DNA of 64,000 nt from an uncultured Gemmataceae bacterium. Lineage in GTDB: Bacteria > Planctomycetota > Planctomycetia > Gemmatales > Gemmataceae. The stretch covers positions 1,440,001 to 1,504,000 of the forward strand of contig CAVVPN010000003.1 in the NCBI GenBank assembly GCA_963750165.1, read 5' to 3'. Both the position numbers and the translations under genes were made by a program. Below the pieces are notes generated by a model, which searched no databases, was not told the origin of the DNA, and saw only the letters and a program-made list of their open reading frames with translations. Of this stretch, positions 22,336 to 40,820 are shown one piece after another (within the stretch, counting starts at the first letter, position 1; each line of letters opens with the position of its first letter).

Positions 22336-22399
22336 CCGTAGTGCGGGCGGCCCGCCTGCACAGCGCGCGTGTGCAGGCGGGCCGCCCGCACCACTACGG
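22336..22399. repeat. REP-like palindrome family D (GTAGTGCGGGCGGCCCGCCTGCAC...)
   Basis: GTAG...CTAC-bounded double palindrome; second copy inside the cyclase gene. Confidence 0.8.
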
Positions 22400-22445
22400 A
22401 GAACCGCACGTCCCTGTTGCCCAGCCTCCCTCAGGTGCCGCGCCG

Positions 22446-23006: not shown

Positions 23007-23075
23007 TTTTTTTCGGGATGGCGTGCGCACTTCACCGCCAAACGTCGCATGACGGGGTAGACGGAGAGCAGCCCC

Positions 23076-26000
23076 ATGCAAGAGCAAACCATCTTCACCG
23101 AGGCTCTGGAACTGGAAGACCCGGCGGCGCGCGCCGCCTTCCTGGACCGGGCCTGCGCCGGCGACCTGGCGCTGCGCCAGCGCGTCGAGCGGCTGCTGCG
23201 ACGGCACCGGGAGGCCGACAGCTTCCCGGAGCAGCCGGCCGCCACCTTCTCCCATGCGGCCCCCCCCGAGGGGCCCGGCGCGCTGATCGGGCCGTACAAG
23301 CTGTTGCAGCAGATCGGCGAGGGCGGCATGGGCGTCGTCTTCATGGCCGAGCAGACCCAGCCGGTGCGGCGCCTGGTCGCGCTCAAGGTCATCAAGGCCG
23401 GCATGGACTCGCGCCAGGTGCTGGCACGCTTCGAGGCCGAGCGGCAGGCGCTGGCGCTGATGGACCACCCCAACATCGCCCGAGTCCTCGACGCGGACGC
23501 CACCGCCACGGGCCGGCCCTACTTCGTCATGGAGCTGGTCAAGGGCCTGGCCGTCACCAAATACTGTGACGAGCGCCGCCTGAAACCGCGGGAGCGCCTG
23601 GAACTGTTCATCCCCGTGTGCCAGGCCGTCCAGCACGCCCACCAGAAGGGCGTCATTCACCGCGATCTCAAACCCGGTAACGTGCTGGTGGCGCAATACG
23701 ACGGCCGGCCCGTGCCCAAGGTCATCGACTTCGGCGTCGCCAAGGCGGCCGGCCCCCGGCTCACCGAGCGCACGCTGTTCACGGAGTTCGGCCAGGTCGT
23801 CGGCACACTGGAGTACATGAGCCCCGAGCAGGCCGAGCTGAACCAACTGGACATTGACACGCGCAGCGACATCTACGCTCTGGGCGTGGTGCTCTACGAG
23901 TTGCTGACCGGCACGACGCCGCTGGAGCGGGGCCGGCTGCGCGAGGTCGGCTTGCTGGAGGTGCTGCGGCGAATTCGCGAGGAGGAGCCGCCGACGCCGA
24001 GCACGCGGCTGAGCACCTCGGCCGAAGGGCCGGGCATCGCGGCCGACCGCGGCCTGGAGCCGAAGCGGCTGAGCAGCCTGGTGCGCGGCGAACTGGACTG
24101 GATCGTCATGAAGTGCCTGGAAAAGGAGCGCGGCCGCCGTTACGAAACCGCCAACGCCCTGGCCCTGGACCTGCAGCGCTACCTGGCGGACGAGCCGGTG
24201 GCCGCCGGGCCGCCTGGCGCGGCGTACCGCTGCCGGAAATTCCTTCGGCGCAACCGCAGATCAGTGCTGGTCGCCGCCGTGGTGCTGCTGGCGCTGATGG
24301 GCGGCTTTATCGGCGCAACCGCAGGCCTGCTTCAGACGATCGTTGCGCGGGAACAGGCATGGGAGGCCGAACGGAAGGAGCGTAGCCAACGGGTGCGGGC
24401 CAAGGCCGGCGAGAAGAAAGCCCAGGATGAGTACGCCCGGGCCGAGGGGGAGCGGAAAATCGCCGAGCGGGAAGGAAAAATCGCCCAGGCGGTGCGCGAC
24501 TTCTTGCAGAAGCAGTTACTCGCCCAGGCGGATGTCCACGTGCAGGCCGACGCCCTGTTGCAGGGCGGCGCGGGCGAAATCAAGGAGAACCCGACTGTCC
24601 GTGAACTGCTCGACCGCGCCGCGGAAGGACTGACCGGGAAGAAGATCGAGTCGCAGTTCCCCGGCCAACCGCTGGTGCAGGCGGAAATCCTGCACACGGT
24701 CGGCGACGCCTACCGCGGCATCGGCGCCTTCGGGCCGGCCATCGACCACCTGGAGCGTGCGCTGCACCTGCGCCAGCGGCACCTCGGCGCCGACCACCGG
24801 GACACCCTGGCGACGCAGCACCGCCTCGCCCGCGCGTACTGGGACGCCGGCGACCTGCCGCGGGCCCTGCCCCTGTTCGAGCGGGTGTGGGCCCGGCAGT
24901 CCGCGACGCTCGGCGCCGACCACCCGGACACCCTGGAAACCCAGTACAACCTCGCGGTGGCGTGCCAGGACGACGGCCAGATGACCAGGGCGGTCCGCCT
25001 GCTCGAGCAGGTGCGTGACGCCTGGTCCCGGGTCCACAGTCCGGACCACCGGAACACCCTGTATACCGAGGTCACCCTCGCCAACGCCTACGTGGCCGAA
25101 GGCAAGGCCGCCGACGCGCTGCGCCGGCTGGTGCCGCTGTGGGAGAAGGCGGCCAGGAACATCGGCCCCGAGCACCCGGAGACCCTGGCCGTGGTGCACG
25201 TGCTCGCCAGGGCGTACGGGGCCGACGGTCAGTGGGCCAAGGCAACCCAGCTGCTCGAAGGCGTGCGGGGACTGATGGAGAAGGAGTTCGGCCCCGAGCA
25301 CCCGCGCACCCTGGTCGTGTTGAGCAACCTCGGCCACGCCTACGGGAAGGGCGGCCGGGTGGCGGAGGCGACCGAGTTGTTGGAGAAGGTCCGGGACCTG
25401 CGCGTCGCCAAACTCGGCCCCGACCACCCGGCCACGCTGATCACCCTGGACAACCTCGCCCAGGCGCACCGGGCCGCCCGGAATCTGCCGAAGGCAATCG
25501 CCTTGCTCGAACAGGTGCGCGACCGGGCCGGGCAGAAGTTCGGCCCCGAGCACCCGCGGACCCTGGGCATGCTGGCCCACCTCGCCGACGCCTACCGGGA
25601 GGCCGGCCGGCTGCCGGAAGGGATCCAGGTGCTCGATGTGATCCGGGACGCTCGGGTCAAAAAACAGGGTGCCGACCACCCGCAGACCCTGACGGTGACT
25701 CAGCAGCTGGCCGTGAGCTGCTGGACCGTGCGCCAGTTCGACCGCTCTGTGCCGCTGTTCGAGGATCTGCTGAAACGACGCCGGGCGAACCTGGGCGCGG
25801 ACCACCCGGACACGCTGGCCACGATGGCGAACCTGGGCGTCAACTATCGCGACGCGGGCCGCCTGGCCGACGGGCTGGCGATGCTGGAGGACGCCCTGGC
25901 GCGGGGCCGCAACTTGCCCGGGGGACTGCCGGAACGGCTCGCCTTTGTGCCGCGGGCGCTGGCGGTGAGCTACAGCCGGGATGGCCAGTTCGCGAAGGCG

Positions 26001-26447
26001 GAACTGCTGTACCGCGCGGCGTTCGAGGAGGCGCGCGACAAGCACGGCGACGGCCAGCCGCAAACCCTCAACCCCCTCGGCGAATTGTGCGTGAATTTAC
26101 TGGCACAGAAGAAGTTCGCCGAGGCCGTGCCGTTAATGCGCCGGCACCTGGCCGGCCGGGAAAAACACGAGGCCGACGCCTGGCCGACGCAGCACGCCCG
26201 GATGCTGCTCGGCGCCGCCCTGCTCGGCAAGGAGCAATTCAAGGAGGCCGAGTCGCTGCTTTTGGCCGCCCACGAGGGGCTGAAGCAGCGTCAGGCCCAG
26301 ATTCACCCCGCCGACCGGCCGGCGGTCCTGGCCAGCAGCCTGGTGTGGCTGGTGCGGTTGTACGAAGCCTGGGACCGGCCCGAGGAGGCCGCGCAGTGGC
26401 GAAAACGCCTGGAAGCGTTTAAGGCTTCCTTGCCGAAGAAGAAGTAA
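23076..26447 (+). CDS. Ser/Thr protein kinase with TM segment and C-terminal TPR repeats
   Basis: [26 protein letters not shown]; many LGxDHPxTL TPR repeats. Confidence 0.95.
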
Positions 26448-26588: not shown

Positions 26589-27782
26589 ATGCGTCTCGTT
26601 CCCTGGCTGCGCTCCCTGGTATCTCCGTCCGCCCGGCGGCAGCCGCGCCGCGTCCGCCCGCTGCTGGAAACGCTGGAAGAGCGGGCCGTGCCGTCGGCCA
26701 ACCATGACATCCTGTACGTCGGCGACGCCGCCGACAACAGCGTCAAGGAGTTCAACGCCGACACCGGGGCGTACCTCGGCACGTTGGTGGCGAGCGGTAG
26801 CGGCGGCCTGGACGGGCCGCGCGGCCTGATCTTCAAGAACCCCGGCAACCTGCTCGTCGTCAACCAGAACGTCGATCAAAGTTTCAGCGGCGAAATCCTC
26901 GACTACAACGGCCACACCGGCGCCCCGAAAAGCCCGGTCGTTTCCCACACCGACCCGAACGCCCCGTTCGCGCCGCGCGGCATGGTGCTGCAGGGCAACG
27001 TCCTGTACGTCGCCAGTTTCCAGGACGCCACCACGCTCAACGGCGAGATCGACAAATACGACGTGAACACCGGCCGCTTCCTGGGCAGCCTGACGCCGCG
27101 TAATTTCTCCGGCACGTTCGAGCCGCGCGGCATCGTGTTCGGCCCCGACGGCTACCTGTACGTCTCGTCCTTCGACCAGACGAACCTGCTGGTCGGTTAC
27201 GTGCTGCGCATGAACCCCTACACCGGCGCCTCGACGGTCGTGGCGGGCAACAACGGTGACGGCATCAACCAGCCCGGCGAGATCCAGGACCTGCACCGCC
27301 CCGAGGGCCTGGTGTTCGGCCCCGACGGCCAACTGTACGTCACCAGCTTCCGCGCCGACGCGACCGACACGGACAAGATTCTGGTGCTGAACCCCAGGAC
27401 CGGCGCCCAGGAGAGCGAGATCAACCTGGACCAGGTGAACCAGCCGCGGGCGTTCGCCCAGGCGCTGGAGTTCGGGCCGGACGGCAAGCTGTTCGTGCCG
27501 ATCAGCGGCAACGGCCCCGACACGGGGTCGATCCGGAGTTACAACGTCGTCACGAAGACCTACAGTGTGTTCGTGGCCGCGGGTGGCCCGCTGGGGCAGG
27601 GCTGGTATCTCACCTTCGGCCAGACGAACCCCGCCACCCTGGCCTACGACGGCGACGACCTGGACGACGTGGGCTGCGACTTCCGGCAGGCGTCGGACCA
27701 GGCGTTCGTGGATTTGCAGGCCCAGGTGGTGTTTTTCTTCTCGGACAGTGACGACCTGATGCACCGGCGCATGTGGGGCTGA
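26589..27782 (+). CDS. Planctomycete extracellular beta-propeller (NHL/Vgb-like) protein
   Basis: RRVRPLLETLEERAVPSA export motif; repeated PRG..FGPDG.LYV.S. Confidence 0.85.
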   Translation: MRLVPWLRSLVSPSARRQPRRVRPLLETLEERAVPSANHDILYVGDAADNSVKEFNADTGAYLGTLVASGSGGLDGPRGLIFKNPGNLLVVNQNVDQSFSGEILDYNGHTGAPKSPVVSHTDPNAPFAPRGMVLQGNVLYVASFQDATTLNGEIDKYDVNTGRFLGSLTPRNFSGTFEPRGIVFGPDGYLYVSSFDQTNLLVGYVLRMNPYTGASTVVAGNNGDGINQPGEIQDLHRPEGLVFGPDGQLYVTSFRADATDTDKILVLNPRTGAQESEINLDQVNQPRAFAQALEFGPDGKLFVPISGNGPDTGSIRSYNVVTKTYSVFVAAGGPLGQGWYLTFGQTNPATLAYDGDDLDDVGCDFRQASDQAFVDLQAQVVFFFSDSDDLMHRRMWG

Positions 27783-27912: not shown

Positions 27913-29679
27913 ATGGACCGCCAACGGCTCGAAGCCGCGTACCTGAAGGCCCGTGACGCCCTGCTCGCGGAGCGCACGCCGGAGGGCCACTGGGTCGGCG
28001 AACTGTCCACGTCGGCGCTGTCCACGGCCACGGCAGTGATGGCGCTGGCGCTGGTGCAGCGGGACACGCCGCCGCACGACCAGCACCAGCGGTTGATCGA
28101 CGGCGGCCTTGCCTGGCTGGTGGCGCACCAGAACGCCGACGGCGGCTTCGGCGACACGGTCAAGAGCATCAGCAACATCTCCACGAGCATGCTGTGCCGG
28201 GCGGCGTTCCACCTCGTAGTGCAGGCGGCCCGCCTGCACAATGGCGGTGCAGGCGAGCCGCCTGCACTACGGCGCATCGAGGCGTACCTGCAACAGCACT
28301 GCGGCCGCACGCCCGCGGAGCAGGCCGAGGCGATCCGCCGCCGCTACGGCAAGGACCGCACCTTCGCGACGCCGATCCTGACGACGTGTGCCCTCGCGGG
28401 GTTGGTGCCGTGGTCCGAGGTGCCGCCGCTGCCGTTCGAGTTGGCGTGCTTTCCGCAATCGTGGTTCCGCTTCCTCCGCCTGCACGTCGTCAGCTACGCG
28501 CTGCCGGCGCTCATCGCCATCGGCCAGTGCATCCACCACCACCGGCCGCCGTGGAACCCGCTGAAACGCCTGACCGGCTGGCTGGCGCGCGACAAAAGCC
28601 TGCGCGTGCTGCAGGCGATTCAGCCGTCGAGCGGCGGCTACCTGGAGGCGGCGCCGCTGACGAGTTTCGTCACGCTGAGCCTGGCGAGCATCGGGCTAGC
28701 GCAGCACCCGGTGGCGGTGAAGGCGGTCGAGTTCCTGGTACTTGGCGTGCGGCCGGACGGCAGCTGGCCGATTGACACGAACCTGGCGACGTGGGTGACG
28801 ACGCTGGCGGTCAACGCGCTGGCGGTGGCGGGGGATCTGGAGGCGCTGGACGGAAGGGAGAAGTTGCAGAGTTGGCTGCTCTGGCAACAATACCGGAAGC
28901 GCCACCCTTTCACAGGGGCAGCCCCGTGGGGGTGGGCCTGGACGCCTTTGCCGGGCGGCGTGCCGGACGCCGACGACACCCCCGGGGCGATCCTGGCGTT
29001 GTGTCATTTCCCGGAGCTGTTTCACGTCGGCTACGGTCACGAACTGGGCCGCGCTGCGGAATGGCTCGGGAACTTACAGAACCGCGACGGCGGCATCCCG
29101 ACCTTTTGCCGCGGTTGGGGAGCGTTGCCTTTTGATCGCAGCGGATCGGACCTCACCGCGCACACGCTCCGGGCCTGGCGGGTGATCGGTTGGAAAGAGA
29201 AAGCAACTCGTCGTGCCCTGGCCTACCTCGCCCGCCAGCAGCGGCCCGACGGCTCCTGGCTGCCGCTGTGGTTCGGCAACCAGCACGCCCCGGACGACAT
29301 CAATCCCACCTACGGCACCGCCCGTGTGCTGGCCGCGTACCGCGACCTCAATAGGATGAACGACGAACCCGCCCGCCGCGGCGTCGCCTGGCTGCTCGCC
29401 GTGCAGAACGCCGACGGCGGTTGGGGCGGCGCCGCCGACACGCCCAGCAGTGTCGAGGAAACCGCCCTGGCGGTGGAAATCCTGCTCGACGCGGGCGAAG
29501 ATGCCCGGACTGCCGTGAATAAGGGCCTGGCCTGGCTCGTCGATCAGGTGGAGCAAAATACCTGGAAAAACGCCGCGCCGATCGGTTTTTACTTTGCAAA
29601 ACTGTGGTACTTTGAGAAACTTTATCCGTTAACCTTCACGGTGGCCGCGCTGGGCCGCGCCCGCCGCACTCTCTCCTGA
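27913..29679 (+). CDS. Class II terpene cyclase (squalene-hopene cyclase-like)
   Basis: PDADDT (DxDD) motif; QW repeats QNADGGFG, QNRDGG, QRPDGSW, QNADGGWG. Confidence 0.88.
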   Translation: MDRQRLEAAYLKARDALLAERTPEGHWVGELSTSALSTATAVMALALVQRDTPPHDQHQRLIDGGLAWLVAHQNADGGFGDTVKSISNISTSMLCRAAFHLVVQAARLHNGGAGEPPALRRIEAYLQQHCGRTPAEQAEAIRRRYGKDRTFATPILTTCALAGLVPWSEVPPLPFELACFPQSWFRFLRLHVVSYALPALIAIGQCIHHHRPPWNPLKRLTGWLARDKSLRVLQAIQPSSGGYLEAAPLTSFVTLSLASIGLAQHPVAVKAVEFLVLGVRPDGSWPIDTNLATWVTTLAVNALAVAGDLEALDGREKLQSWLLWQQYRKRHPFTGAAPWGWAWTPLPGGVPDADDTPGAILALCHFPELFHVGYGHELGRAAEWLGNLQNRDGGIPTFCRGWGALPFDRSGSDLTAHTLRAWRVIGWKEKATRRALAYLARQQRPDGSWLPLWFGNQHAPDDINPTYGTARVLAAYRDLNRMNDEPARRGVAWLLAVQNADGGWGGAADTPSSVEETALAVEILLDAGEDARTAVNKGLAWLVDQVEQNTWKNAAPIGFYFAKLWYFEKLYPLTFTVAALGRARRTLS

Positions 29680-29726
29680 AGACGCTAACCGAACCCACCC
29701 CGAGCGCCCCCAGTGAGGAAGCACCT

Positions 29727-31496
29727 GTGGCGACCGCTGCCGAACCCCAGGTCGAGAAAAAAGACAAGCGCCCCAGCACCTCGCACTTGAAGGTCGTCCC
29801 CGAGACGCGCGCGCTGCGCGACCGCGTCCGCGCCGAGGCCGCCCGCGTCGGCCAAGGCTTCGACCGCGCGCGGCCGCTCACCAAGCAAGCGCTGCAGGCG
29901 ATGGCCGAGCTGCTGCTGCGCGACATGGGGCTGGGCGAACAGTACCTCGGCTTCACGATGGTGGCGCTGTCCAACGAGTTCTGGCGCGAGCAGGTGCAGG
30001 CCATCGACTTCAAGCGCCGCCTGCTGCTGCTGCCTCACTGCCTCAAGAACGCGGAGGGCTGCCCTGCCGACTACGACGAGTTCGGCCTCGATTGCAAGAA
30101 GTGCGGCGCCTGTTCCGTCGCGGACTTCAAGGTCAAGGCGGAAGAGCTCGGCTACAAGGTGCTCGTCTCCGAGGGCACGCCCATCGTCCTGAAGATCATC
30201 GTCAGCGGCCACGTCGATGCCATCGTCGGCGTCGCCTGCCTGAACGTGCTTGAAAAGGCCATCGACAAGATATTACTGGCCGGCATCCCCTGCGTCGCGG
30301 CGCCGCTGCTGTCGAGCAACTGCCGCAGCACCAGCGTCGATGACGACTGGGTCGCCGAGCTGATCGACCTGCACGTCCCCAAGGAACAGCCGCAGACGAA
30401 GACGTATGTCCATCTGATGCGGGCGGCGAACGCCATTTGCGAGGAGCCGGAATTGTCGCGGCTGGCCCCGCGGGCGCGGGCGAAGGGGACCGACCCGCTC
30501 GCCGCTCACGAGAACATCGCTTACGACTTCCTGGGCAACGGCGGCAAGCGGTCGCGGCCGTTCATCACGCTGGCGGCTTACGACGCCCTGAAGGGGGCGC
30601 CCGGCACACGCTCGGTGGAGGGCGTGGACCTGCCCGACGCGGTGAAGCGCACCGCCCTGGCGATCGAGGCGTTCCACAAGGCGTCGCTGGTCCACGACGA
30701 CATTGAGGACGACGACACCTTCCGCTACGGCCGGGCGACGCTGCACCGCCAGCACGGCGTCGGCACGGCGATCAACGTCGGCGATTACCTGATCGGCCTC
30801 GGCTACCGCCTGGTGAGCCGCGAGCGCAAGGCCCTGGGCGGCGACTGCACCGCGGACATCCTGGACCGCCTGGCGGACGCGCACATGAAGCTGTCCGAGG
30901 GTCAGGGGGCGGAATTGCTCTGGCGCGACGCCCGCGACAAGACGCTGACGGCCCTGGACGCATTGAAGATGTACGCGCTGAAGACGGCGCCGGCGTTCGA
31001 GGCGGCGCTGTACGCAGGGCTGCGGTGCGCGGGGCCGACGGAGCCATATGACAAGCTGGTGGTCGAGTTCAGCCGGCACCTGGGCATCGCCTTCCAGATT
31101 TTGAACGACCTGAAGGACTGGCAGCCGGACGAGGACAACAAGCTGCTGGCGGGTCAGGACGTGCTGGCGGCCCGGCCGACGCTGCTGCTGGCGCTGGCGC
31201 TGGAGGGCTCGGCGCCGGCGGAGCGGGCGGAACTGCTGGCGCTGCTGCACGACGCCGGCGGCGAACGCGCGGCCCGGCTCGAACAGGTGCGCCGCATCTT
31301 TTTCAAGGCGCAGGTCTTCGACAAGGCGGACAAGCTGGTCGAAAAATACCGGGCGCGGGCGGAGGCCCTGGCGGACGCAGTGGAGCCGACGGAGTTGCGC
31401 GAGCTGCTGTATTACCTCATCGATTCGGTGCTGGAGCGGCAGGCGCTGCCGGTGGCGGAAACGGGGATCGTCCAGATCGTGCAACTGGGAGCATGA
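29727..31496 (+). CDS. DUF116 + polyprenyl diphosphate synthase fusion
   Basis: Cys-rich LPHCL..C..CKKCGAC..GVACL..NC N-domain; GGKRSRP, HDDIED (FARM), GQG.EL, KTA, FQILNDLKD (variant SARM). Confidence 0.88.
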   Translation: MATAAEPQVEKKDKRPSTSHLKVVPETRALRDRVRAEAARVGQGFDRARPLTKQALQAMAELLLRDMGLGEQYLGFTMVALSNEFWREQVQAIDFKRRLLLLPHCLKNAEGCPADYDEFGLDCKKCGACSVADFKVKAEELGYKVLVSEGTPIVLKIIVSGHVDAIVGVACLNVLEKAIDKILLAGIPCVAAPLLSSNCRSTSVDDDWVAELIDLHVPKEQPQTKTYVHLMRAANAICEEPELSRLAPRARAKGTDPLAAHENIAYDFLGNGGKRSRPFITLAAYDALKGAPGTRSVEGVDLPDAVKRTALAIEAFHKASLVHDDIEDDDTFRYGRATLHRQHGVGTAINVGDYLIGLGYRLVSRERKALGGDCTADILDRLADAHMKLSEGQGAELLWRDARDKTLTALDALKMYALKTAPAFEAALYAGLRCAGPTEPYDKLVVEFSRHLGIAFQILNDLKDWQPDEDNKLLAGQDVLAARPTLLLALALEGSAPAERAELLALLHDAGGERAARLEQVRRIFFKAQVFDKADKLVEKYRARAEALADAVEPTELRELLYYLIDSVLERQALPVAETGIVQIVQLGA

Positions 31497-32041
31497 GCAC
31501 ACAACCGAACCTGACGAACCCGGACACGCGCGGCCTGTTCGGCCTGTTCCCGCAGGCCGAGTACCTGGCCTACGCGGAACTGGTGTCCGACGAGCAGGTG
31601 CCCGAGCCGTACCACGGCCTGCTGGTCCACGAACACCACATGACGGTCACGGTCGAGCAGTTCCACGGCAGTCCGGTGGACGTGCGTGTGTTACAGCAAT
31701 ACCGCGGCCAGAACGCTTACGCTCGCAAGATTCTGCTGGAAACGCAGCGCGACCGCCGCGTTGTCATGTTCGGCCTGGTGCGGATTCACCTGCGTTTCTG
31801 CAATGACGAGGTGCGGGCGGAGATTCTGTCCGGGCAAATCCCGCTGGGCCGCGTGCTCATCAACCACGACATTTTGCGCCGCATCGAGCCGACCGCGTTC
31901 GTGCGGGTGGTGCCGGGGCCGGGCCTGATGGAGTGGTTCGGCCTGCCGCGGCCGCGCCCGACCTACGGCCGGCTGGCGACGATTCATTGCGACAATTACC
32001 CGGCGGTGGAGTTGCTGGAGATCGTGGCTCCTGAACCATAG
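31493..32041 (+). CDS. Chorismate-lyase-fold (UbiC/DUF98-like) protein
   Basis: LLVHEHHMT..VE, YARKILL, ILSGQIPLGRVL pattern; ATGA overlap with the upstream gene. Confidence 0.65.
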   Translation: MSTQPNLTNPDTRGLFGLFPQAEYLAYAELVSDEQVPEPYHGLLVHEHHMTVTVEQFHGSPVDVRVLQQYRGQNAYARKILLETQRDRRVVMFGLVRIHLRFCNDEVRAEILSGQIPLGRVLINHDILRRIEPTAFVRVVPGPGLMEWFGLPRPRPTYGRLATIHCDNYPAVELLEIVAPEP

Positions 32042-32051
32042 GAGGTGCCCT

Positions 32052-32831
32052 GTGCGATTGTTCCTCACCCTGGCAATTGTGATGACGGCGGCTGGGTTGG
32101 TCCCGGCCAGCCCGCAGCAAAAACAGGACGACGCCAAACAGGCGCGAGCCCGGGTAGACGTGCAGAACCTGGAAAAGGCCGTCGCCGCCTACAAGGTGAA
32201 AAACGGGACGTTTCCGCCCAGTCTGGAAGACCTCACCCAGGGCGACAAGCCGTTCGTGGAGCCCAAGGCGCTGCTAGACCCCTGGGGCCAACGGTACCAT
32301 TACGACGCGGGCCGGTTGAACAAAAAGGGCATCCCCCACCTCTGGACAGAGGGGCCCAAGGGCGCCAAGGTCATCATCGGCAACTTCGAGCCCGGCGCGC
32401 CGAAGCAGACCACCCTCTACCAGCGCCTCGGCGAAGAAAAGGGCATTGCGAAGATTGTCGATGACCTGGTCGAAATCGTCATCGCCGACCCGAAATACCG
32501 CAAGGAACTCAAGGATCACTTCATCAAGGGCGACGTGAAGGCGCTGAAGCGCAAGCTGATCGACCAGCTCGGCGAGGCGACCGGCGGGCCGCAGAAGTAC
32601 AAGGGCAAGAACATGAAGGACGCCCACAAGGGCATGAAGATCACCAACGACGACTTCAACGCGCTCATGGACGACGTCACCAAGGCGCTCGTCAAGAACA
32701 AGGTCGAGGCGAAGGACCTGCGCGTCATCATCAAAATGCTGCAGAAGATGCGCCCGGATGTGGTCGAGGTGCCGGCGAAGTCGTCGCGGCTGGAGCGGCC
32801 GACGCTGGAAAGGGCGCCGGCCGCGGCGTAG
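32052..32831 (+). CDS. Secreted fusion: GspG-like (T2SSG) globular domain + group 1 truncated hemoglobin
   Basis: Signal peptide; AY....G.FP.SLEDL...LLDPWG..YHY; LYQRLG..GI..IVD...ATGGP.KY.GKNM..AH.GM.IT..DF. Confidence 0.8.
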   Translation: MRLFLTLAIVMTAAGLVPASPQQKQDDAKQARARVDVQNLEKAVAAYKVKNGTFPPSLEDLTQGDKPFVEPKALLDPWGQRYHYDAGRLNKKGIPHLWTEGPKGAKVIIGNFEPGAPKQTTLYQRLGEEKGIAKIVDDLVEIVIADPKYRKELKDHFIKGDVKALKRKLIDQLGEATGGPQKYKGKNMKDAHKGMKITNDDFNALMDDVTKALVKNKVEAKDLRVIIKMLQKMRPDVVEVPAKSSRLERPTLERAPAAA

Positions 32832-32891
32832 AAAAACAGCAAGCTGCCCGCCAACCCCGCCCGCCGACAACATCCCCCCGGAGTCCGCCTC

Positions 32892-34421
32892 GTGTCCACG
32901 ACCACCCCCGCCGTCACCGCCCCGCCCCCCGCGACCGGCCACCTCGGCTCGGTCACGCGCGTCCTGGTCATCGTCATCGCCTGCATCGGCTTCCTGTTCG
33001 ACACCTACGAACTGCTGATGTTTCCGGTGATCGGCTCGGACGCCATCGCCGAGCTGGAGTACCACAAGGGTGTCAGCAGCCTCACGCCCGCGGAGGCGGC
33101 CGGCGTCCGCTCCTGGGGCGGCCGCATGCTCTGGGCCGCGGCGCTGTCCGGCGGCGTCTTCGGCCTGCTCGGCGGCCTGCTGATCGACCGCCTCGGCCGC
33201 AAAACCATCATGGTCGCCAGCATCCTGGCGTACTCGCTGTCGCCGGTCGCGGCGGCGTTCAGCACGGAGCTGTGGCAATTGATCCTGTTCCGCTGCACCA
33301 CCTTCATCGGCGTCTGCGTCGAGATGGTAGCCGCGGTCACGTGGTTGACGGAGTTGTTCGAGGACAAGCGGACGCGCGAGCTGGTGATCGGCTGGACGTT
33401 GGCAACCGCGTCGCTGGGCGGCATTCTGGTGACGGAAGCGTATAACTGGATCGTGGAGGCCGCGCACGTGCCCGGCTCGCTGCCCGCCCTGCAGTTCCCC
33501 GGCGGCCACATGGCCGAAAACGTCGCCTGGCGCTTCACGTTGTTGACGGGGTTGATTCCGGGGGCAGCGATTCTATTGTTGATGCCCTTTGTCCCCGAGT
33601 CTGGCGTCTGGAAGCGCAAGAAGCAGGAAGGCACGTTGAAACGCGCCAGTTTCCGCGAACTCTTCTCGCCCGAGCTGCGGCGAACGACGCTTGTGACGAC
33701 GGTCCTGTCCGCGTGCGGTTACGCCGCGGCGTTCGGAGCGATTCAACTGACGCCGTTAATCATCGTCGCCGGGTTGCCCGACATTTCGCGGGAAGTCTCC
33801 GCTGCGACAAAGGGAGTGAAGACCGCCGAGGCCAAACTGAAGGCGGCCGGCGCGGACATCGCGAAACAGGAAGCCGCGCGTGCCCAGCTGGCGGAGGCCC
33901 GGAAAACCCAGGCGGAGGCGGCCCAGGACCTCAAGGCCCGCCGCGGCGACATTCAACGCTGGCAAGAACTCGGCGGCCTGACTGGGCGAATCCTGCTGGC
34001 AGCCCTGCTGTTGTTCGTGCCGAGCCGGTGGCTCATCCGTCTGTTTCTGATCCCGGGCGTAATCCTGTTACCCGTGACCTATTTCCAGCTCGTCCACCAG
34101 GATTACGTCATCTTCGCCACCGCCATCTTCTTCTGCGGACTGTTGACGGTGGCCCAGTTCAGTTTCCTGAGCGAATTTTTGCCAAAGGTGTTCCCGCTGC
34201 ACCTGCGCGGCACCGGCGGCAGTTTCTCGACGAATTTTGGCGGCCGGATGCTCGGCACGATGGCCGCGACGCTGAACACCGAATTCCTGTCGAAGCAGTT
34301 TTCCGGCACACCGCCGCACCAGGTGGCCATGGCAGCCGGCGTCATCGGCGGCACGGTCTACCTGATCGCGCTGCTGGCCACGTTCCTGCTGCCCGCGCCG
34401 CGGTTGGACGTGGAAAAATAG
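32892..34421 (+). CDS. MFS transporter
   Basis: FDTYE, G.LIDRLGRK motif A, FP.HLRGTG; about 12 TM segments. Confidence 0.9.
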   Translation: MSTTTPAVTAPPPATGHLGSVTRVLVIVIACIGFLFDTYELLMFPVIGSDAIAELEYHKGVSSLTPAEAAGVRSWGGRMLWAAALSGGVFGLLGGLLIDRLGRKTIMVASILAYSLSPVAAAFSTELWQLILFRCTTFIGVCVEMVAAVTWLTELFEDKRTRELVIGWTLATASLGGILVTEAYNWIVEAAHVPGSLPALQFPGGHMAENVAWRFTLLTGLIPGAAILLLMPFVPESGVWKRKKQEGTLKRASFRELFSPELRRTTLVTTVLSACGYAAAFGAIQLTPLIIVAGLPDISREVSAATKGVKTAEAKLKAAGADIAKQEAARAQLAEARKTQAEAAQDLKARRGDIQRWQELGGLTGRILLAALLLFVPSRWLIRLFLIPGVILLPVTYFQLVHQDYVIFATAIFFCGLLTVAQFSFLSEFLPKVFPLHLRGTGGSFSTNFGGRMLGTMAATLNTEFLSKQFSGTPPHQVAMAAGVIGGTVYLIALLATFLLPAPRLDVEK

Positions 34422-34496
34422 AACCCCAGGGACGGGCTATAATGATCGTGCCCGTGGTTCTGCCGCAAACGGCAGAAATTCAAGAATCCTGCTGCC

Positions 34497-35786
34497 ATGC
34501 GCATTGCCTACATCACCGCGGGCGCCGCCGGCATGTTCTGCGGCTCCTGCATGCACGACAACACGCTCGTGGCCACGCTGCGCGCCCAGGGCCACGACGC
34601 CCTGCTCATCCCGACCTACACGCCCATCCGCACCGACGAGCCTGATGTCAGCGACGCGCACATCTTCTTCGGCGGCATCAACGTCTATTTGCAGCAAAAA
34701 TTTTCGCTGTTCCGCCATACGCCGCGCTTCCTCGACCGCCTGCTCGACTTCCGGCCGCTGCTGCGCTGGGTGTCGCGCTTCGCGGTCAAGACGCAGGCCG
34801 AGGACCTGGGCGAACTGACGCTGTCGATGCTGCGCGGCGAGCACGGCCGGCAGCGCAAGGAACTGGACAAGCTGGTCCACTGGCTCGCCGACGACCTGAA
34901 ACCGGAACTCGTCAACCTGACCAACGTCATCCTGGCGGCGCTGGTGGCGCCGCTCAAGCGCCGGTTGAACATCCCCGTTTTGGGCACGCTGCAGGGCGAC
35001 GACATCTTCCTCGAATCGCTGCCGCCGCAGTACCACGGCGCCGCCCTCGATATGGTGCGCGAGCACTGCCGCGCCTTCGACGGCTTCATCGCCACCAGCG
35101 CCTATTACGCCGACTTCATGGCCGATTACCTGCAAATTCCGCGGCACAAGATCGACGTGATTCACCCGGGCCTGAACCTGCACGGCCACGGCGGGCCGCG
35201 GCCGGAGCGCAACGGCACGCCGCTGACGGTCGGTTATTTCGCCCGCATCTGCCCGGAGAAGGGCCTGCACCAGCTGGTGGACGCCTTCCGGCTGCTGCGA
35301 ACGGAAGCGGCGGCGCCGCCGTGCCGGCTGCGCGTCTCCGGCTGGCTCGGCGGCAACAACCAGCATTATTTCCAGGAACTGCAAAAACGCCTGCGCGACT
35401 GGGGCCTCGCGGACCAGGTGGAGCACGTCGAAGCGCCGGACCACGCCAGCAAGGTGCGCTTCCTGCAAAGCATCGACGTGCTCTCAGTGCCGACGACGTA
35501 CCGCGAGCCGAAGGGGCTGTACGTGCTGGAGGCGCTGGCGAACGGCACGCCGGTGGTGCAGCCGCGGCACGGCTCGTTCCCCGAACTGATCGAGGCGACG
35601 GGAGGCGGCCTCCTGGTGCAGCCGGACGACCCCGCGGACCTGGCACGCGGCCTGCGCGAGCTGCTCAGCGACCACAGACTGCGGGCGGACCTGGGCCGCA
35701 AGGGCCAGGCGGCGGTGCGCGAACGCTTCACGGCCGAGGCGATGGCCCAACAAACCGAGCAAGTCTATCGGAAATATCTGCCATGA
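34497..35786 (+). CDS. Glycosyltransferase family 4 protein with N-terminal CxxC
   Basis: GMFCGSCMHDN; ARICPEKG; EPKGLYVLEALANG.PVV. Confidence 0.9.
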   Translation: MRIAYITAGAAGMFCGSCMHDNTLVATLRAQGHDALLIPTYTPIRTDEPDVSDAHIFFGGINVYLQQKFSLFRHTPRFLDRLLDFRPLLRWVSRFAVKTQAEDLGELTLSMLRGEHGRQRKELDKLVHWLADDLKPELVNLTNVILAALVAPLKRRLNIPVLGTLQGDDIFLESLPPQYHGAALDMVREHCRAFDGFIATSAYYADFMADYLQIPRHKIDVIHPGLNLHGHGGPRPERNGTPLTVGYFARICPEKGLHQLVDAFRLLRTEAAAPPCRLRVSGWLGGNNQHYFQELQKRLRDWGLADQVEHVEAPDHASKVRFLQSIDVLSVPTTYREPKGLYVLEALANGTPVVQPRHGSFPELIEATGGGLLVQPDDPADLARGLRELLSDHRLRADLGRKGQAAVRERFTAEAMAQQTEQVYRKYLP

Positions 35787-36199
35787 GTGAGCCGTTCCGC
35801 ACGTCGCGCCGTGTTGAGTTCGTGGACACGGACATGGCCGGCATCGTCCACTTCTCGAACTTTTTCCGCTGGATGGAGTCGGCGGAGCTGGACTTCCTGA
35901 AGGCGCGCGGCCTGACCTTCAAGTGGGAGCAGGACGGACTGGCGCTCGGGCTGCCGCGCGTGTCGGCGTCGTGCGACTACCTGAAGCCGGTGCGCTTCGA
36001 CGACACGCTGGACATCGCGGTGCTGCTGGAGAAGCTCGGCCGCACGTCGCTGACGTACGGCTTCGAGTTCAGCGTGCATGGCGAGCTGGTGGCGCGCGGC
36101 CGGCTCAGCTGCGTGTGCTGCCGCAGCCTGCCGGGCAACCGCCTGGAGCCGACCGAGATCCCCGCGGCGCTGCGGGCGAAGCTGACGACGCTCGCGTAA
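35783..36199 (+). CDS. Acyl-CoA thioesterase (4HBT/YbgC hot-dog fold)
   Basis: DTDMAGIVHFSNFFRWME; ATGA overlap with GT4. Confidence 0.9.
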   Translation: MSEPFRTSRRVEFVDTDMAGIVHFSNFFRWMESAELDFLKARGLTFKWEQDGLALGLPRVSASCDYLKPVRFDDTLDIAVLLEKLGRTSLTYGFEFSVHGELVARGRLSCVCCRSLPGNRLEPTEIPAALRAKLTTLA

Positions 36200-36214: not shown

Positions 36215-36496
36215 TCAGGCCGCGATCACCAGCCCTCTCGGGGCACCATTCCGGAGGAACGCCTTGACCGCATCGGACTCTCCGGCGGCGGCGTTCTCCA
36301 GGGTTTCGACCTCGCAGGGTCCCAGTACTTCGACGCCAAGGAGCAGGCCGTCCGGGTCGTAATCGGCGTTGACCACGCCGCCTTTGATTTCGCGCGTCCG
36401 CGCCACTTTCCCGTCCCGCACGCGCAGGTTTACGGCCATGATGCGGCCGCTCTCCTGGTCGAAGGAGGCTTCCAGGCGAAAATCAGGCTTGGTCAT
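36215..36496 (-). CDS. DUF2283-like small protein (possible orphan antitoxin)
   Basis: AAGGAG RBS; VARTREI...V.ADYD.DG.LLGVEVL. Confidence 0.75.
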   Translation of the reverse strand: MTKPDFRLEASFDQESGRIMAVNLRVRDGKVARTREIKGGVVNADYDPDGLLLGVEVLGPCEVETLENAAAGESDAVKAFLRNGAPRGLVIAA

Positions 36497-36625
36497 TCCC
36501 GGTCTCCTTTTCGGTTCGCCAGGTCGTGACGACGACGAGCTGCAAACGGCCGAGGCAGGACAACGCCGATCCTTCCCTCCCGAGCGATTGGGCTGTTGCC
36601 TGGAAGCGAAAAGCGGTAAGTAATG

Positions 36626-36674
36626 ACCCCGTTTACGTTTCGCGCACTGACAGCACGCGAAACGTAAACGGGGT
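36626..36674. repeat. Inverted repeat ACCCCGTTTACGTTTCGCG / CGCGAAACGTAAACGGGGT, possible terminator
   Basis: 19-bp perfect stem; shares the CGTTTCGCG core with the 27814 hairpin. Confidence 0.75.
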
Positions 36675-36725
36675 TTGTTGTTAGTCGTCAATCCAGAACA
36701 ATCCCATTCACCAGCCCGTTCACCG

Positions 36726-37778
36726 TCACGATGCCGGATGGTTGAAGTCCACGACGTACGACCCGCCGGCGGTCACGTGGAGTGGCCGTGTCTGGTCCAT
36801 GGGCTGGCCATTCTGCGTCCAGTGGGCGCGCAACTGATAGGTGTACGACTGACCGGGCGTCAGCGGCGGCGACTGGTATTCGCGCTCTGCGCCGCGCTGG
36901 CGGGTCGGGCTGCCGTCGAACCAGACTTCCGCGTCTGGCGGCACGAGGATGCGGATGGCCGCGGTTGCCGGCGCCGTGGGCGCCGGGCTGACGGCCGGGT
37001 AACCGGTGCCCAGGTAGTACGGTTGATACCCCGTTGAGGAGTAGTAAGGGGTATAAGGGTAATAGCGCCTGTAGTAGGGCAGACCGTAGGACGCGCTACT
37101 GTAATAGGGCAGATAACCATAGCCAGGGACGTAGCCACCGTAGCCACCGTAGCCACCGTAGCCACCGTAGCCACCGTAACCACCGTAACCCAAACCATAG
37201 TCGCCGAAGCCGTCAAGTCCGTAGGAGCCAAGGCCGTAAAGGCCGCCATAGCCGAGAAGGCCGCCGTAGCCGAAGAGACCACCGTAGCCCAGGAGGCCAT
37301 AGCCCAGACCACCGTAGCCCAGACCACCGTAGCCCAGACCACCGTAGCCCAGACCACCGTAGCCCAGGCTGTACAGACCACCACCGTAATAACCATTGTA
37401 CACGGAGGTGCCGTAGCCAGTGTGAAGCCCCCCGCCGTGCAAGACACCGCCGCCACCGTGCAAGACACTGCCGCTGTGCAAGACACCGCCGCCACCGTGC
37501 AAGACACTGCCGCTGTGCAAGACACCGCCGCTGAACCCGCCGCCGTGGAAGCCACCGGCGTGGCCGACACCGCCGAAGCCGCCAGTGTGGCCGACACCGC
37601 CGAAGCCGCCAGTGTGACCGACACCGCCGAAGCCGCCAGCGTGGCCGACGCCGCCGAAGCCGCCAGCGTGGCCGCCGCCGTGCCCACCATGCTGGGCCAG
37701 ACTTGTCCCGGCGCCCACCAGCACCAGGACACCGGTGAGGAGACCCACACCGGCCATGCCAACCAATTGCCTGATCAT
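36726..37778 (-). CDS. Secreted Gly/Tyr/His-rich protein with C-terminal TIGR03000 domain (paralog 1)
   Basis: Signal peptide; GGFGGVGH, GGLGY and GGY repeats; VP.DAEVWFDG..T.QRG..R.Y.SPPL..G..Y.Y.LRA.W. Confidence 0.88.
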   Translation of the reverse strand: MIRQLVGMAGVGLLTGVLVLVGAGTSLAQHGGHGGGHAGGFGGVGHAGGFGGVGHTGGFGGVGHTGGFGGVGHAGGFHGGGFSGGVLHSGSVLHGGGGVLHSGSVLHGGGGVLHGGGLHTGYGTSVYNGYYGGGLYSLGYGGLGYGGLGYGGLGYGGLGYGLLGYGGLFGYGGLLGYGGLYGLGSYGLDGFGDYGLGYGGYGGYGGYGGYGGYGGYVPGYGYLPYYSSASYGLPYYRRYYPYTPYYSSTGYQPYYLGTGYPAVSPAPTAPATAAIRILVPPDAEVWFDGSPTRQRGAEREYQSPPLTPGQSYTYQLRAHWTQNGQPMDQTRPLHVTAGGSYVVDFNHPAS

Positions 37779-37851
37779 AGTACCCCCTCCACGGGCGAAG
37801 CGCACAGCGGAAAATCAAAGCTCCGCCAGAGCTTGCCTCCTCCCTTTCGCT

Positions 37852-38018: not shown

Positions 38019-38933
38019 TCACGGGTTCGGGCTGTTGAAGTCCACGACGTACGACCCGCCGGCAGTCACCTGGAGCGACCGCGTCCGGTCCACGGGCTGG
38101 CCGTTCTTGGTCCAGTGAGCGCGCAACTGGTAGGTGAACGTCTGGCCGGGCGTCAGCGGCGGCGTCTGGTATTCGCGATCCGGGCCGCGCTGCTTGGTCG
38201 GACTGCCGTCGAACCAGACTTCCGCGTCCGACGGCACCAGGATGCGAATGGACGCGGCGGTCGTCGTCACGGGCGTCGGGCTGACGGTCGCGTAACTGGT
38301 GCTCGGGTAGTACGATTGATACCCCACTGCGGGGCTGTAGGTGGAGTAACTATAATAGCCGCCGTAGTAGGGCAGGCTGTAGGACGAGCCGTAATAGCTG
38401 TTATACGGATAACCGTAGCCGCCATAGTAGCCGTAGGACGGGTAACCGTAGCCATAGCCGCCAGAGCCGAGGCCGTAAAGGCCGCCAGAGCCGAGCAGAC
38501 CGCCGTAACCGAAGAGACCACCGTAGCCGAGGAGGCCATAGCCGCCATACCCCAGACCATAGCCGCCATACCCCAGACCATAGCCGTAGCCGCCATATCC
38601 CAGGCCGTAACCCCGGTTGTACAGATTGGTGCCGTAATAGCCCCGGTTGTACAGATTGGTGCCGTAATAGCCCCGGTTGTACAGGCCGCCGCGATAAATC
38701 CCCGTGTGGAGGGCACCGCCACGGAAAATCCCCGTGTGAAGGGCGCCGCCGCGGAAGCCGCCGCCGTGGAAGCCACCACCGTGGAAGCCACCCCCGTGGA
38801 AGCCGCCCCCGTGGAAGCCGCCGTGGCCGCCACCGTGCCCACCATGTTGGGCCAGGCTTGTCCCGGGGCCCACCAGCACCAGGACGCCGGCGAGCAACCC
38901 CGCGCCGGCCATGCCAATCACTCCCCTTCTCAT
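38019..38933 (-). CDS. Secreted Gly/Tyr-rich protein with C-terminal TIGR03000 domain (paralog 2)
   Basis: Same architecture as paralog 1; GGFHG and LYNRGYYGTN repeats. Confidence 0.88.
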   Translation of the reverse strand: MRRGVIGMAGAGLLAGVLVLVGPGTSLAQHGGHGGGHGGFHGGGFHGGGFHGGGFHGGGFRGGALHTGIFRGGALHTGIYRGGLYNRGYYGTNLYNRGYYGTNLYNRGYGLGYGGYGYGLGYGGYGLGYGGYGLLGYGGLFGYGGLLGSGGLYGLGSGGYGYGYPSYGYYGGYGYPYNSYYGSSYSLPYYGGYYSYSTYSPAVGYQSYYPSTSYATVSPTPVTTTAASIRILVPSDAEVWFDGSPTKQRGPDREYQTPPLTPGQTFTYQLRAHWTKNGQPVDRTRSLQVTAGGSYVVDFNSPNP

Positions 38934-39340: not shown

Positions 39341-40702
39341 ATGACGTGTCGTGCTGTTTTCTCGCTGATTCTGCTGTTGTTCGGCGGTTCGCTGGGCGCG
39401 GGCGAGAAGCCGCTCAAGATTGCCGTGTTTGAAGCCGACGTGACGCCGCCACTCGGAACACCGCTGTGCGATGGCCTCGTCCAGCCGGCCAGGGAAATCG
39501 TTGATCGGTTGTCAACGCGCGGCATCATCCTGTTCACCAACGACAAGCCCATCGTGCTGTGCGCCGTCGATTGGGTCGGCATCGGCAACCGCGGCCACAC
39601 CGCCTTCCGCGAAGCCATCGCCCGTGCCGGCGGCACCACGAAGGACCGTGTTTGCGTGCATTGCCTGCACCCGCACGACGCCCCCGGCTGCGACTTTGAA
39701 GCGGACGAATTGCTGCGCCCCTTCAAGCTCAATGGCAAACTCTTCGATCCCGTGTTCGCCCGCAAGGCGATTGAGCGAATCACCAGGGTGATCGAGAAGG
39801 CGGTGAAGAACCCGCGCACCGTTACTCACATCGGCGTCGGCAAGGCCAAGGTGATCGATGTCGCCTCCAACCGCCGCGTGATGGGGCCGGACGGCAAGGT
39901 GAAATACGTCCGCTACAGCTCGACGAAGGATGCGAAAATCCGCGCCGAGCCCGAAGGGGTGATTGACCCGTATGTCCACGTGCTGGCGTTTTATGATGGC
40001 GCCACGCCGGTTAGCGTGCTGACCTACTACGCCACGCATCCGCAAAGCTACTACGGCGGGGGCGGAGTGAGTTGCGATTTCCCCGGCCTGGCCCGCGGTC
40101 TGCGCGAACGGCAGCTGCCCGGCCCGTTGCACGTCCACTTCAACGGCGCCGGCGGCAACGTCACCGCGGGCAAGTACAACGATGGCTCGGTCCAGAACCG
40201 CATGGTCCTGGCGACGCGCCTGGCGAAGGGGATGAAGGAGGCCTTTGAGTCGATCAAGAAGGAGCCGATTGACGCCGCCAAGGTGTCCTGGCGCGTCACC
40301 AGCGCGGCACTGCCGCTCAGCAAGCTCTATAACACCACGGACCTCAAGGCCAAGGTCGCCGACGAGAAGCTGAAGGAACTGGACCGCCTGCGCGCCGCCC
40401 GCAATTACGCCTGGGCGCGGCGCTGTGAAGCGGGCGAAACCATCGATATGCAATGTCTGCAAATCGGCTCGGCCTACGTGCTGCACATGCCGGGCGAACT
40501 GTTCATTGAGTACCAGCTGGCCGCCCAGAAAATGCGTCCGAAATCCGCGGTGATGATGGCCGCGTATGGCGATTACGGCATGGGCTACATCGGCACCGCC
40601 ATCGCCTATACGCAGGGCGGCTACGAAACCGGCCCGGTGTCGCGCATGGCGCCGGAGGTGGAAGGCGTGTTGATGAAAGCGATGCGCGAACTGTTAAAGT
40701 GA
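39341..40702 (+). CDS. Secreted neutral-ceramidase-like hydrolase (planctomycete type)
   Basis: ADVTPPLG, HPHDAP, YATHPQS, S.DFPG, GAGGNV, PGELFIEYQL, GYI...AY..GGYE. Confidence 0.75.
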   Translation: MTCRAVFSLILLLFGGSLGAGEKPLKIAVFEADVTPPLGTPLCDGLVQPAREIVDRLSTRGIILFTNDKPIVLCAVDWVGIGNRGHTAFREAIARAGGTTKDRVCVHCLHPHDAPGCDFEADELLRPFKLNGKLFDPVFARKAIERITRVIEKAVKNPRTVTHIGVGKAKVIDVASNRRVMGPDGKVKYVRYSSTKDAKIRAEPEGVIDPYVHVLAFYDGATPVSVLTYYATHPQSYYGGGGVSCDFPGLARGLRERQLPGPLHVHFNGAGGNVTAGKYNDGSVQNRMVLATRLAKGMKEAFESIKKEPIDAAKVSWRVTSAALPLSKLYNTTDLKAKVADEKLKELDRLRAARNYAWARRCEAGETIDMQCLQIGSAYVLHMPGELFIEYQLAAQKMRPKSAVMMAAYGDYGMGYIGTAIAYTQGGYETGPVSRMAPEVEGVLMKAMRELLK

Positions 40703-40707
40703 TTGCT

Positions 40708-40781
40708 TTCTGCCGCTTGCGGCTTGCGCGCTTCCGCCAAGCCGCAAGCGGCGGAAGCGCGCCAAGCCGCAAGCGGCAGAA
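40708..40781. repeat. REP-like palindrome family B with duplicated right arm
   Basis: TGCCGCTTGCGGCTTG followed by two CGCCAAGCCGCAAGCGGC copies. Confidence 0.8.
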
Positions 40782-40820
40782 CCAGAAATCCTACCAACCC
40801 TACCCACCGGAGCTTATCGC

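Follow-up and report, generated by a model that had tools for sequence, protein, structure and literature searches.

Positions 27913-36199 of the DNA analysed here hold a run of seven genes that begins with a class II terpene cyclase. The whole 64,000-nt stretch, hereafter the window, corresponds to positions 1,440,001-1,504,000 of contig CAVVPN010000003.1 in assembly GCA_963750165.1, the 9.6 Mb genome of an uncultured Gemmataceae bacterium; the closest homologues of the cyclase are likewise labelled Gemmataceae. Seven co-oriented open reading frames (ORFs) on the + strand fill the run, spaced in order by 47, -4, 10, 60, 75 and -4 bases, and ATGA is present at both overlaps (the 29727/31493 and 34497/35783 pairs). 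An earlier note on this DNA had described this packing, which we confirmed for every ORF and both overlaps, together with sequence motifs that are likewise present, and had read the run as a single pathway. Our analysis leads, with high confidence, to another conclusion, namely that two conserved modules, A and B, meet in the run. A scan for promoters and terminators within the run gave no signal clearly exceeding those of shuffled sequences. The seven genes are:

27913..29679, + strand: class II terpene cyclase of the squalene-hopene cyclase-like ('SHC-like') clade of the Planctomycetes-Verrucomicrobia-Chlamydiae (PVC) bacteria, module A; 588 aa; PF13243/PF13249; DADD acid motif
29727..31496, + strand: fusion of a Cys-rich DUF116 domain to a trans-polyprenyl diphosphate synthase, module A; 589 aa; PF01976 + PF00348
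31493..32041, + strand: protein with a chorismate-lyase fold predicted from a model, nearest DUF98/AF1396, module B; 182 aa; no Pfam match
32052..32831, + strand: fusion of a pseudopilin-G-like domain to a truncated globin, local passenger; 259 aa; PF08334 + PF01152
32892..34421, + strand: major facilitator superfamily (MFS) transporter, module B in Planctomycetia; 509 aa; PF07690
34497..35786, + strand: family 4 glycosyltransferase (GT4) with an N-terminal CxxC, common to both modules; 429 aa; PF00534
35783..36199, + strand: hotdog-fold (4HBT/YbgC-like) thioesterase, module B; 138 aa; PF13279, PF03061

Six of these genes had been named correctly before, while the fourth, which combines T2SSG-like and bacterial globin domains, had been left out of the note's title.

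Two modules with separate distributions

We compared 80 genomes, 40 of them cyclase-positive and hand-picked for spread and 40 cyclase-negative (all 12 negatives of the family, G108, and the 27 phylum negatives of low handle number). The cyclase served as marker of module A and an EhpF-like gene as marker of module B; orthologues of the latter matched at 1e-132 or better, and the weak matches in G021 (1e-50) and G031 (4e-61), together with a second copy in G303, were set aside as paralogues. The host genome also has a second EhpF-like gene (G000:C4:122204-123481), which scored only 153 bits where the copy in module B reached 686. By these markers, 33 genomes carried both modules (A+B), seven only A, 14 only B and 26 neither. 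A prenyltransferase-type barrel protein followed the cyclase strictly (40/40 cyclase-positive against 0/40 cyclase-negative genomes), as did, nearly so, a radical S-adenosylmethionine (SAM) enzyme (35/40 against 0/40) and the DUF116-polyprenyl synthase (40/40 against 4/40). A second set of genes followed the EhpF-like gene instead: the UbiC-like gene was found in 29, 0, 14 and 0 genomes of the A+B, A-only, B-only and neither classes (43 of the 47 EhpF-like genomes and 0/33 others), and the thioesterase in 33, 0, 12 and 0 (45/47 and 0/33). GT4 was present in 33/33 A+B, 14/14 B-only, 4/7 A-only and 2/26 remaining genomes. Among the 12 cyclase-negative family genomes, UbiC-like was found in 12, GT4 in 12, the thioesterase in 11 and the MFS gene in 10; the latter was also present in 13 of 14 cyclase-positive family genomes, and a single-protein query for it matched in none of 42 genomes outside the class. 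These presence patterns assign genes 1 and 2 to module A and genes 3, 5 and 7 to module B, leave GT4 to either and make the globin fusion a local passenger.

A GcvH-like carrier protein showed a third pattern, since it was present in 33/33 A+B genomes and in 0/7 A-only, 0/14 B-only and 0/26 remaining ones. The seven A-only genomes, which come from seven families, jointly lack the GcvH-like, EhpF-like, thioesterase and UbiC-like genes. Outside the class Planctomycetia, module B occurred in 9 of 15 cyclase-positive and in 1 of 27 cyclase-negative genomes. Five extra cyclase genomes, reached through loci whose labels place them outside the phylum (Verrucomicrobia or Chitinophaga), had the GcvH-like gene in all five cases and EhpF-like plus UbiC-like in four. 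The fifth, a Verrucomicrobia metagenome-assembled genome (MAG) of unknown completeness (G353), is thus the one exception to a carrier that otherwise behaves as A AND B. Five MAG records labelled Alcaligenaceae or Chitinophaga (L139, L150, L158, L208, L211) have cyclases or neighbours that are closely planctomycete-like; some of the labels are possibly wrong, so that a range of the cyclase beyond PVC bacteria is weakly grounded.

The synteny comparison proposed in the earlier note covered 60 phylum loci (from 76 cyclase carriers other than the host genome) and 38 family loci. In the phylum loci the cyclase was accompanied by the DUF116 synthase in 48 (a 49th match, in L036, was set aside because the gene encodes a different polyprenyl synthase and runs on the other strand), GT4 in 8, the thioesterase in 4, UbiC-like in 3, MFS in 1 and the globin in none. 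Genes with no counterpart in the window were frequent: a 4Fe-4S family in 40 (a count that includes the small Cys partner and shorter forms), the barrel in 37, GcvH-like in 29, radical SAM in 25, a CobW-like GTPase in 21 and a DndA-like desulfurase in 14. In the host genome the DndA-like gene is followed by an IscA/ErpA-like gene for iron-sulfur (Fe-S) assembly (L114 7538-8014), and the desulfurase may therefore simply serve cluster assembly. The family loci had the synthase in 24, UbiC-like in 18, MFS in 8, GT4 in 6 and the thioesterase in 5. The gene order exceeds chance. On its conservation, a point on which the single-pathway reading had been made to depend, the complete seven-gene order recurs in two of the 38 family loci (L103 and L104), and cyclase-synthase-UbiC-like adjacency is common. 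The order HemN-like, GcvH-like, ferredoxin, cyclase also recurs, and genes of A and B are interleaved in a single operon in L086, L045, L078, L093, L015, L027, L138 and L187, with nearly all genes in one operon in L086.

In some genomes without the cyclase, module B forms a complete operon of its own (L118, L119, L121). It comprises genes for the EhpF-like adenylating enzyme, an aldehyde-dehydrogenase-family protein, an Fe-alcohol dehydrogenase, a pyrroloquinoline quinone (PQQ)-like propeller, a HemN-like radical SAM enzyme, the UbiC-like protein, an MFS or sodium symporter, GT4, the thioesterase, an ATP-binding cassette (ABC) ATPase and an FtsX-type permease, often with a flavin halogenase-like gene (WxWxIP motif) and sometimes with a PaaK-like ligase. 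The EhpF-like enzyme matches EhpF (PDB 3l2k) over nearly its full length (E 6e-45), and a plasmid homologue is annotated 'arylcarboxylate reductase'. A GT4-ABC-propeller block also lies beside NuoF/NuoG-like and 4Fe-4S genes in L020, L028, L042, L069, L071, L122, L123 and L137, which belong to A-only and some module-free genomes, and this suggests a third, more general block.

These data bear directly on whether the seven genes form a complete cluster that makes a cyclised, glycosylated aryl-polyprenyl lipid unaided. Tight packing, the two overlaps and the recurrence of the full order in L103 and L104 speak for such a cluster. Nevertheless, we consider it highly improbable: the barrel found in every cyclase genome lies here on a different contig from the run, and in L103, L104 and L086 it comes after the thioesterase; about 15 further genes of both modules are located outside the window, spread over contigs C1, C3, C4, C11 and C12; nothing in the window could activate or prenylate an aryl acid, and no fetched locus has a UbiA gene; and four of the seven genes (UbiC-like, thioesterase, MFS and GT4) persist without the cyclase, while seven cyclase genomes lack both UbiC-like and thioesterase. 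The earlier single-pathway reading was thus not supported.

The remaining genes of the run add detail. In GT4 the first Cys of the CxxC reported previously is invariant and the second is present in 9 of 10 rows; D17 of the thioesterase is invariant; and the NCBIfam models nearest to the MFS protein are sialate and aromatic-acid symporters, all under cut-off. At the slot of the fourth gene, a single-domain globin with a leader was found in 2 of 38 family loci (one of three matching rows, in L105, was weak and was set aside) and in none of the 60 phylum loci, and other loci have a halogenase-like gene there. We therefore rejected the globin fusion as a pathway member. The beta-propeller gene upstream of the run (26589-27782) was similarly unsupported, with 0 matches in the 60 phylum and 38 family loci. 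Further upstream, an extracytoplasmic function (ECF) sigma factor gene is followed by a Ser/Thr kinase gene with TPR repeats (22341-26447), a common planctomycete pair. Directly downstream of the run lie a small DUF2283-like gene (36215-36691, - strand; score slightly below cut-off), then tandem paralogues (36726-37805 and 38019-38933, - strand) whose products look secreted, contain long repeats rich in Gly, His and Tyr, have a C-terminal domain in common and gave no Pfam match, and a gene for an 1100-aa protein (40699-44001) that matches the middle domain of hydrazine synthase alpha.

Putative functions of the cyclase, the synthase and the UbiC-fold protein

The window cyclase has the Pfam domains SQHop_cyclase_N and SQHop_cyclase_C, and its acid motif DADD at 352-355 bears out the DxDD reported before, with D352, D354 and D355 invariant in 91/91 aligned homologues. 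A clade of class II cyclases is labelled 'SHC-like' or 'unknown function' in the work of Santana-Molina et al. 2020 (PMC7306690) and McShea et al. 2025 (PMC12324236). According to the supplement of PMC7306690, a polyprenyl synthase usually lies near the gene and the precursor may differ from squalene; PMC12324236 describes the clade as sister to epoxy-polyprenyl cyclases, with its function not demonstrated. By its sequence, the window cyclase belongs to this clade and not to TIGR01507: the blocks GELST, SYAL, GVPDADDTPG, GGIPTFC, GFYF and FEKLYP agree with those in the SHC-like rows that PMC7306690 shows in supplementary fig. 10, and the protein has 68% identity to one from Gemmata HG799464.1 that appears in that supplement, with which it shares a subclade (SH-aLRT 98). 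It scored 88-114 bits against TIGR01507 (curated cut-off 431 bits) and is 32% identical to a canonical SHC. A phylogenetic comparison had been suggested before; in our quick tree, which held 24 SHC-like rows and only two SHC rows and left out oxidosqualene cyclase (OSC) and SqhC rows, the two SHC rows were set off by a long, fully supported branch. The cyclase is carried by 77 of 301 phylum and 39 of 51 family genomes, and its pattern has more than 600 matches in the species collection.

Could the enzyme be a second squalene cyclase for hopanoid-like lipids, with incidental neighbours? Its DxDD is intact, and SQS_PSY genes occur in the host genome, which has two, and in each of the 25 tested carriers from class Planctomycetia. 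The other cyclase of the host genome, a canonical SHC (TIGR01507 539 bits) adjoining an HpnH-like radical SAM gene, lies in two reading frames near its C-terminus (G000:C12 ~1246300-1248330; L116 6010-8335), through assembly error or as a pseudogene, so that a back-up is conceivable. One of the two SQS_PSY genes (C3 ~2796300-2797100) is likewise split over two frames, which favours sequencing errors as the cause. Against a squalene cyclase, 23 of 70 cyclase carriers tested gave no SQS_PSY match, five of these being 98-99% complete, and two 99% complete genomes (G088 and G203) have the cyclase with neither an SQS_PSY nor a TIGR01507 match. Squalene is thus unlikely to be an obligate substrate. 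The distance from canonical SHC, and the constancy with which the cyclase is accompanied by its own synthase and barrel, also weigh against this explanation, and we regard it as very unlikely. The prior view that the cyclase is not of the hopanoid type was supported, and a non-squalene substrate is quite likely. The absence of hpn genes from the window, which had been cited in its favour, says little, since SQS_PSY genes and a canonical SHC exist elsewhere in the genome.

The synthase next to the cyclase consists of a DUF116 domain (60-212) with seven invariant Cys and a Polyprenyl_synt domain (263-521), as the earlier note had proposed. Its first motif, DDIED, is preceded by A319/S320, which are invariant in 26 rows. 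In long-chain trans-prenyl diphosphate synthases, small residues occupy positions -5/-4 ahead of the first DDxxD, a rule that would suggest a product of C25 or longer. The best solved-structure matches, however, are geranylgeranyl (C20) synthases, and no NCBIfam cut-off was reached. The second motif, NDLKD, had been singled out as a replacement of DDxxD. It is indeed present, but the first position is N in 16 and D in 10 of 26 aligned orthologues, which makes NDLKD a clade variant rather than a peculiarity of this protein, and we ruled it out as a mark of altered chemistry.

The 182-aa protein encoded at 31493 had been called UbiC-like, with structure prediction as the proposed check. An alignment-based AlphaFold model (predicted local distance difference test, pLDDT, 92) has a chorismate-lyase/UTRA fold: it superimposed on 2nwi (AF1396/DUF98) with Z 16.9 (root mean square deviation, rmsd, 2.1; 144 aligned), on E. 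coli UbiC 1fw9 with Z 12.0 (rmsd 3.0; 142 aligned) and on UTRA domains with Z 10-12.5. The product-site residues of UbiC include Met34, Arg76, Leu114 and Glu155 (PMC7879144). M50, R78 and L118 of the modelled protein align with the first three in a weak profile alignment (probability 44%), and the invariant E176 falls one residue out of register with Glu155 in an ungapped extension. None of 93 close homologues matched Pfam Chor_lyase or PF01947, families carried by 15-19% of the members among its Atlas neighbours, and the profile of the protein had no significant match among solved-structure sequences. Going by the model, the protein is probably a 4-hydroxybenzoate synthase.

Proposed pathway and alternatives

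At about even probability, we favour a pathway that couples a non-squalene cyclic polyprenoid to a unit derived from hydroxybenzoate, with glycosylation and export of the product. The observations concern gene content, folds, motifs, linkage and co-occurrence, and from them we infer every chemical step. The DUF116-prenyl synthase would join isoprene units head to tail into a polyprenyl diphosphate, perhaps of C25 or more, which would then be modified through Fe-S/radical chemistry by the radical SAM enzyme, the ferredoxin and the single prenyltransferase-type barrel. The DADD motif of the cyclase would protonate the chain and yield a non-hopanoid ring system, squalene being dispensable. The UbiC-fold protein would convert chorismate to 4-hydroxybenzoate, possibly halogenated afterwards; the EhpF-like enzyme would activate it for reduction to the aldehyde and then the alcohol, and the thioesterase may act on aryl thioesters. 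Each module would function alone in some genomes. The A AND B pattern and the interleaved operons suggest that the GcvH-like protein, whose Lys at the lipoyl position is invariant in 14/14 rows, joins the modules, most simply by passing the aryl unit to the terpenoid. GT4 would glycosylate the meroterpenoid-like product, and the FtsX-type ABC system would export it. A covalent aryl-terpenoid, with its presumed link, is somewhat less than an even prospect. We also offer the speculative and rather unlikely proposal that a hitherto undescribed class of glycosylated, possibly halogenated meroterpenoid is widespread in PVC bacteria. In it, the two-domain SHC-like cyclase would fold a head-to-tail polyprenyl chain, a GcvH-like protein would take the place of UbiA or an acyl carrier protein in shuttling the aryl unit between an EhpF-type reductase module and a radical-SAM/Fe-S terpenoid module, and lineages with A or B alone would each produce only their own half.

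Several observations count against the favoured pathway. With seven UbiA-family proteins of the host genome as queries (E 1e-4), no ORF matched in loci L012-L217, and the UbiA genes of the host are unlinked; because UbiA is missing from all fetched loci, the step joining aryl and prenyl parts is left without a known enzyme. Module A without B in seven genomes and B without A in 14 mean that neither needs the other; G353 has the GcvH-like gene with no EhpF-like or UbiC-like match, and four A+B genomes gave no UbiC-like match. The chorismate-lyase fold is also common to UTRA ligand-binding domains, the UbiC profile alignment is weak with its glutamate off register, and the closest solved relatives of the synthase make a C20 product. 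The barrel has no DxD acid, and among solved structures it comes closest to the beta subunits of protein prenyltransferases (Rab geranylgeranyl- and farnesyltransferase). Finally, the 80-genome sample was hand-picked and includes many incomplete MAGs, its members are not independent (12 of the 14 B-only genomes are from one family), the profiles were partly built from the same genomes, and absence means not found with that query.

Much of this would fit an alternative in which A and B are chemically separate pathways, one to a cyclic polyprenoid lipid and the other to an aryl alcohol or glycoside, with a common operon, GT4 and exporter, and in which the GcvH-like protein belongs to A and was lost in A-only lineages for unrelated reasons. 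Besides the stand-alone modules, the missing UbiA and G353, this explanation draws on the wide scatter of the genes in Planctomycetaceae and on the report in 10.1101/723874 that a planctomycete carrying a chorismate-lyase-like/halogenase gene pair yields a halogenated derivative of hydroxybenzoate in free form. It accounts poorly for the same seven genomes from seven families lacking the GcvH-like, EhpF-like, thioesterase and UbiC-like genes together, for the concentration of module B in cyclase-positive genomes outside Planctomycetia and for the recurrent HemN-like, GcvH-like, ferredoxin, cyclase order. We judge separate pathways unlikely, though a serious contender.

The relatives of the barrel raise another alternative, in which the product is a cofactor or protein modification: the barrel would S-prenylate a thiol, or an aryl or prenyl group would be placed on the GcvH-like Lys, with sulfur from the DndA-like enzyme and ABC delivery to PQQ-like propellers. 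The desulfurase and CobW-like GTPase in the phylum loci, and the propellers and FtsX-type permease that adjoin GT4 in both modules, are in line with it. Yet the conserved motif of the barrel has Asp, and no Cys, at what we take to be the zinc-ligand positions of protein prenyltransferases, A-only genomes retain cyclase, synthase and barrel without the carrier, and propellers are very abundant in these genomes. This makes a protein or cofactor modification distinctly improbable.

For the favoured pathway, the division into modules has practical consequences. Expression of the seven window genes alone is unlikely to work, and the module split points to cyclase, synthase, barrel, radical SAM enzyme and ferredoxin as the set for co-expression, with A+B, A-only and B-only genomes as natural controls. 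The substrate of SHC-like enzymes is an open question for cyclase evolution and for orphan fossil lipids, as PMC7306690 and PMC12324236 bring out, and a carrier link, if true, would be a new way to join aromatic and terpenoid parts.

Relation to known systems

The nearest published counterpart is the SHC-like clade itself. The window cyclase has the motif blocks of the clade and the stated identity to its Gemmata member, and for the clade, too, a polyprenyl synthase close to the gene and a precursor other than squalene have been put forward. The cluster had rightly been called uncharacterised, although PMC7306690 has already published both the pairing of cyclase and synthase and the suggestion that squalene is not the substrate. 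What differs is the company of the cyclase: in the accessible text of PMC7306690 and PMC12324236 the polyprenyl synthase is the only neighbour named, neither barrel, carrier and Fe-S genes nor the aryl module are mentioned, and 'DUF116' and 'chorismate' do not occur. In our literature searches, which left most subscription papers outside, the wider gene set was not described anywhere. New here are the assignment of each window gene to separable modules, the AND pattern and the candidate link between modules. Hopanoid (hpn) biosynthesis likewise uses a two-domain cyclase with DxDD; the window enzyme differs in being far under the TIGR01507 cut-off, independent of squalene synthase and accompanied in the genome by a separate SHC beside the HpnH-like gene.

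Module B finds its closest parallel in aryl carboxylate reduction. EhpF/EhpG and GriC/GriD are two-part reductases of aryl acids, and the module B anchor resembles the EhpF type of the D-alanylgriseoluteic acid cluster, also in being followed by an aldehyde-dehydrogenase-family gene. In that cluster, EhpF-O convert phenazine dicarboxylate onward, as outlined in PMC3175449. Unlike EhpF/GriC systems, module B continues with genes for an Fe-alcohol dehydrogenase, HemN-like, UbiC-like and halogenase-like proteins, GT4 and the ABC system, and we noted no phenazine or grixazone genes in the loci that we inspected. Planctomycetales strain 10988 has the pair BaaA/BaaB, to which 3,5-dibromo-p-anisic acid was assigned without a genetic test (10.1101/723874); the two are comparable by their description only: a chorismate-lyase-like gene adjoins a flavin halogenase-like gene, as in L086, L120, L126 and L133, but BaaB was likened to Bmp5, whereas the halogenase-like gene of module B is nearest to CmlS-type models.

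The favoured pathway resembles in part the merosterol (MstE) and putative tolypodiol pathways of cyanobacteria. According to PMC9401909 and PMC8073705, these combine a chorismate lyase and a prenyl synthase with a class II cyclase whose polyprenyl substrate is not squalene. Those pathways use a UbiA prenyltransferase, and the merosterol cyclase is single-domain, whereas the window cyclase is two-domain and has no linked UbiA. Unlike its cyanobacterial counterparts, the window-type cyclase also occurs without aryl genes, and it is accompanied by Fe-S, radical SAM and carrier genes.

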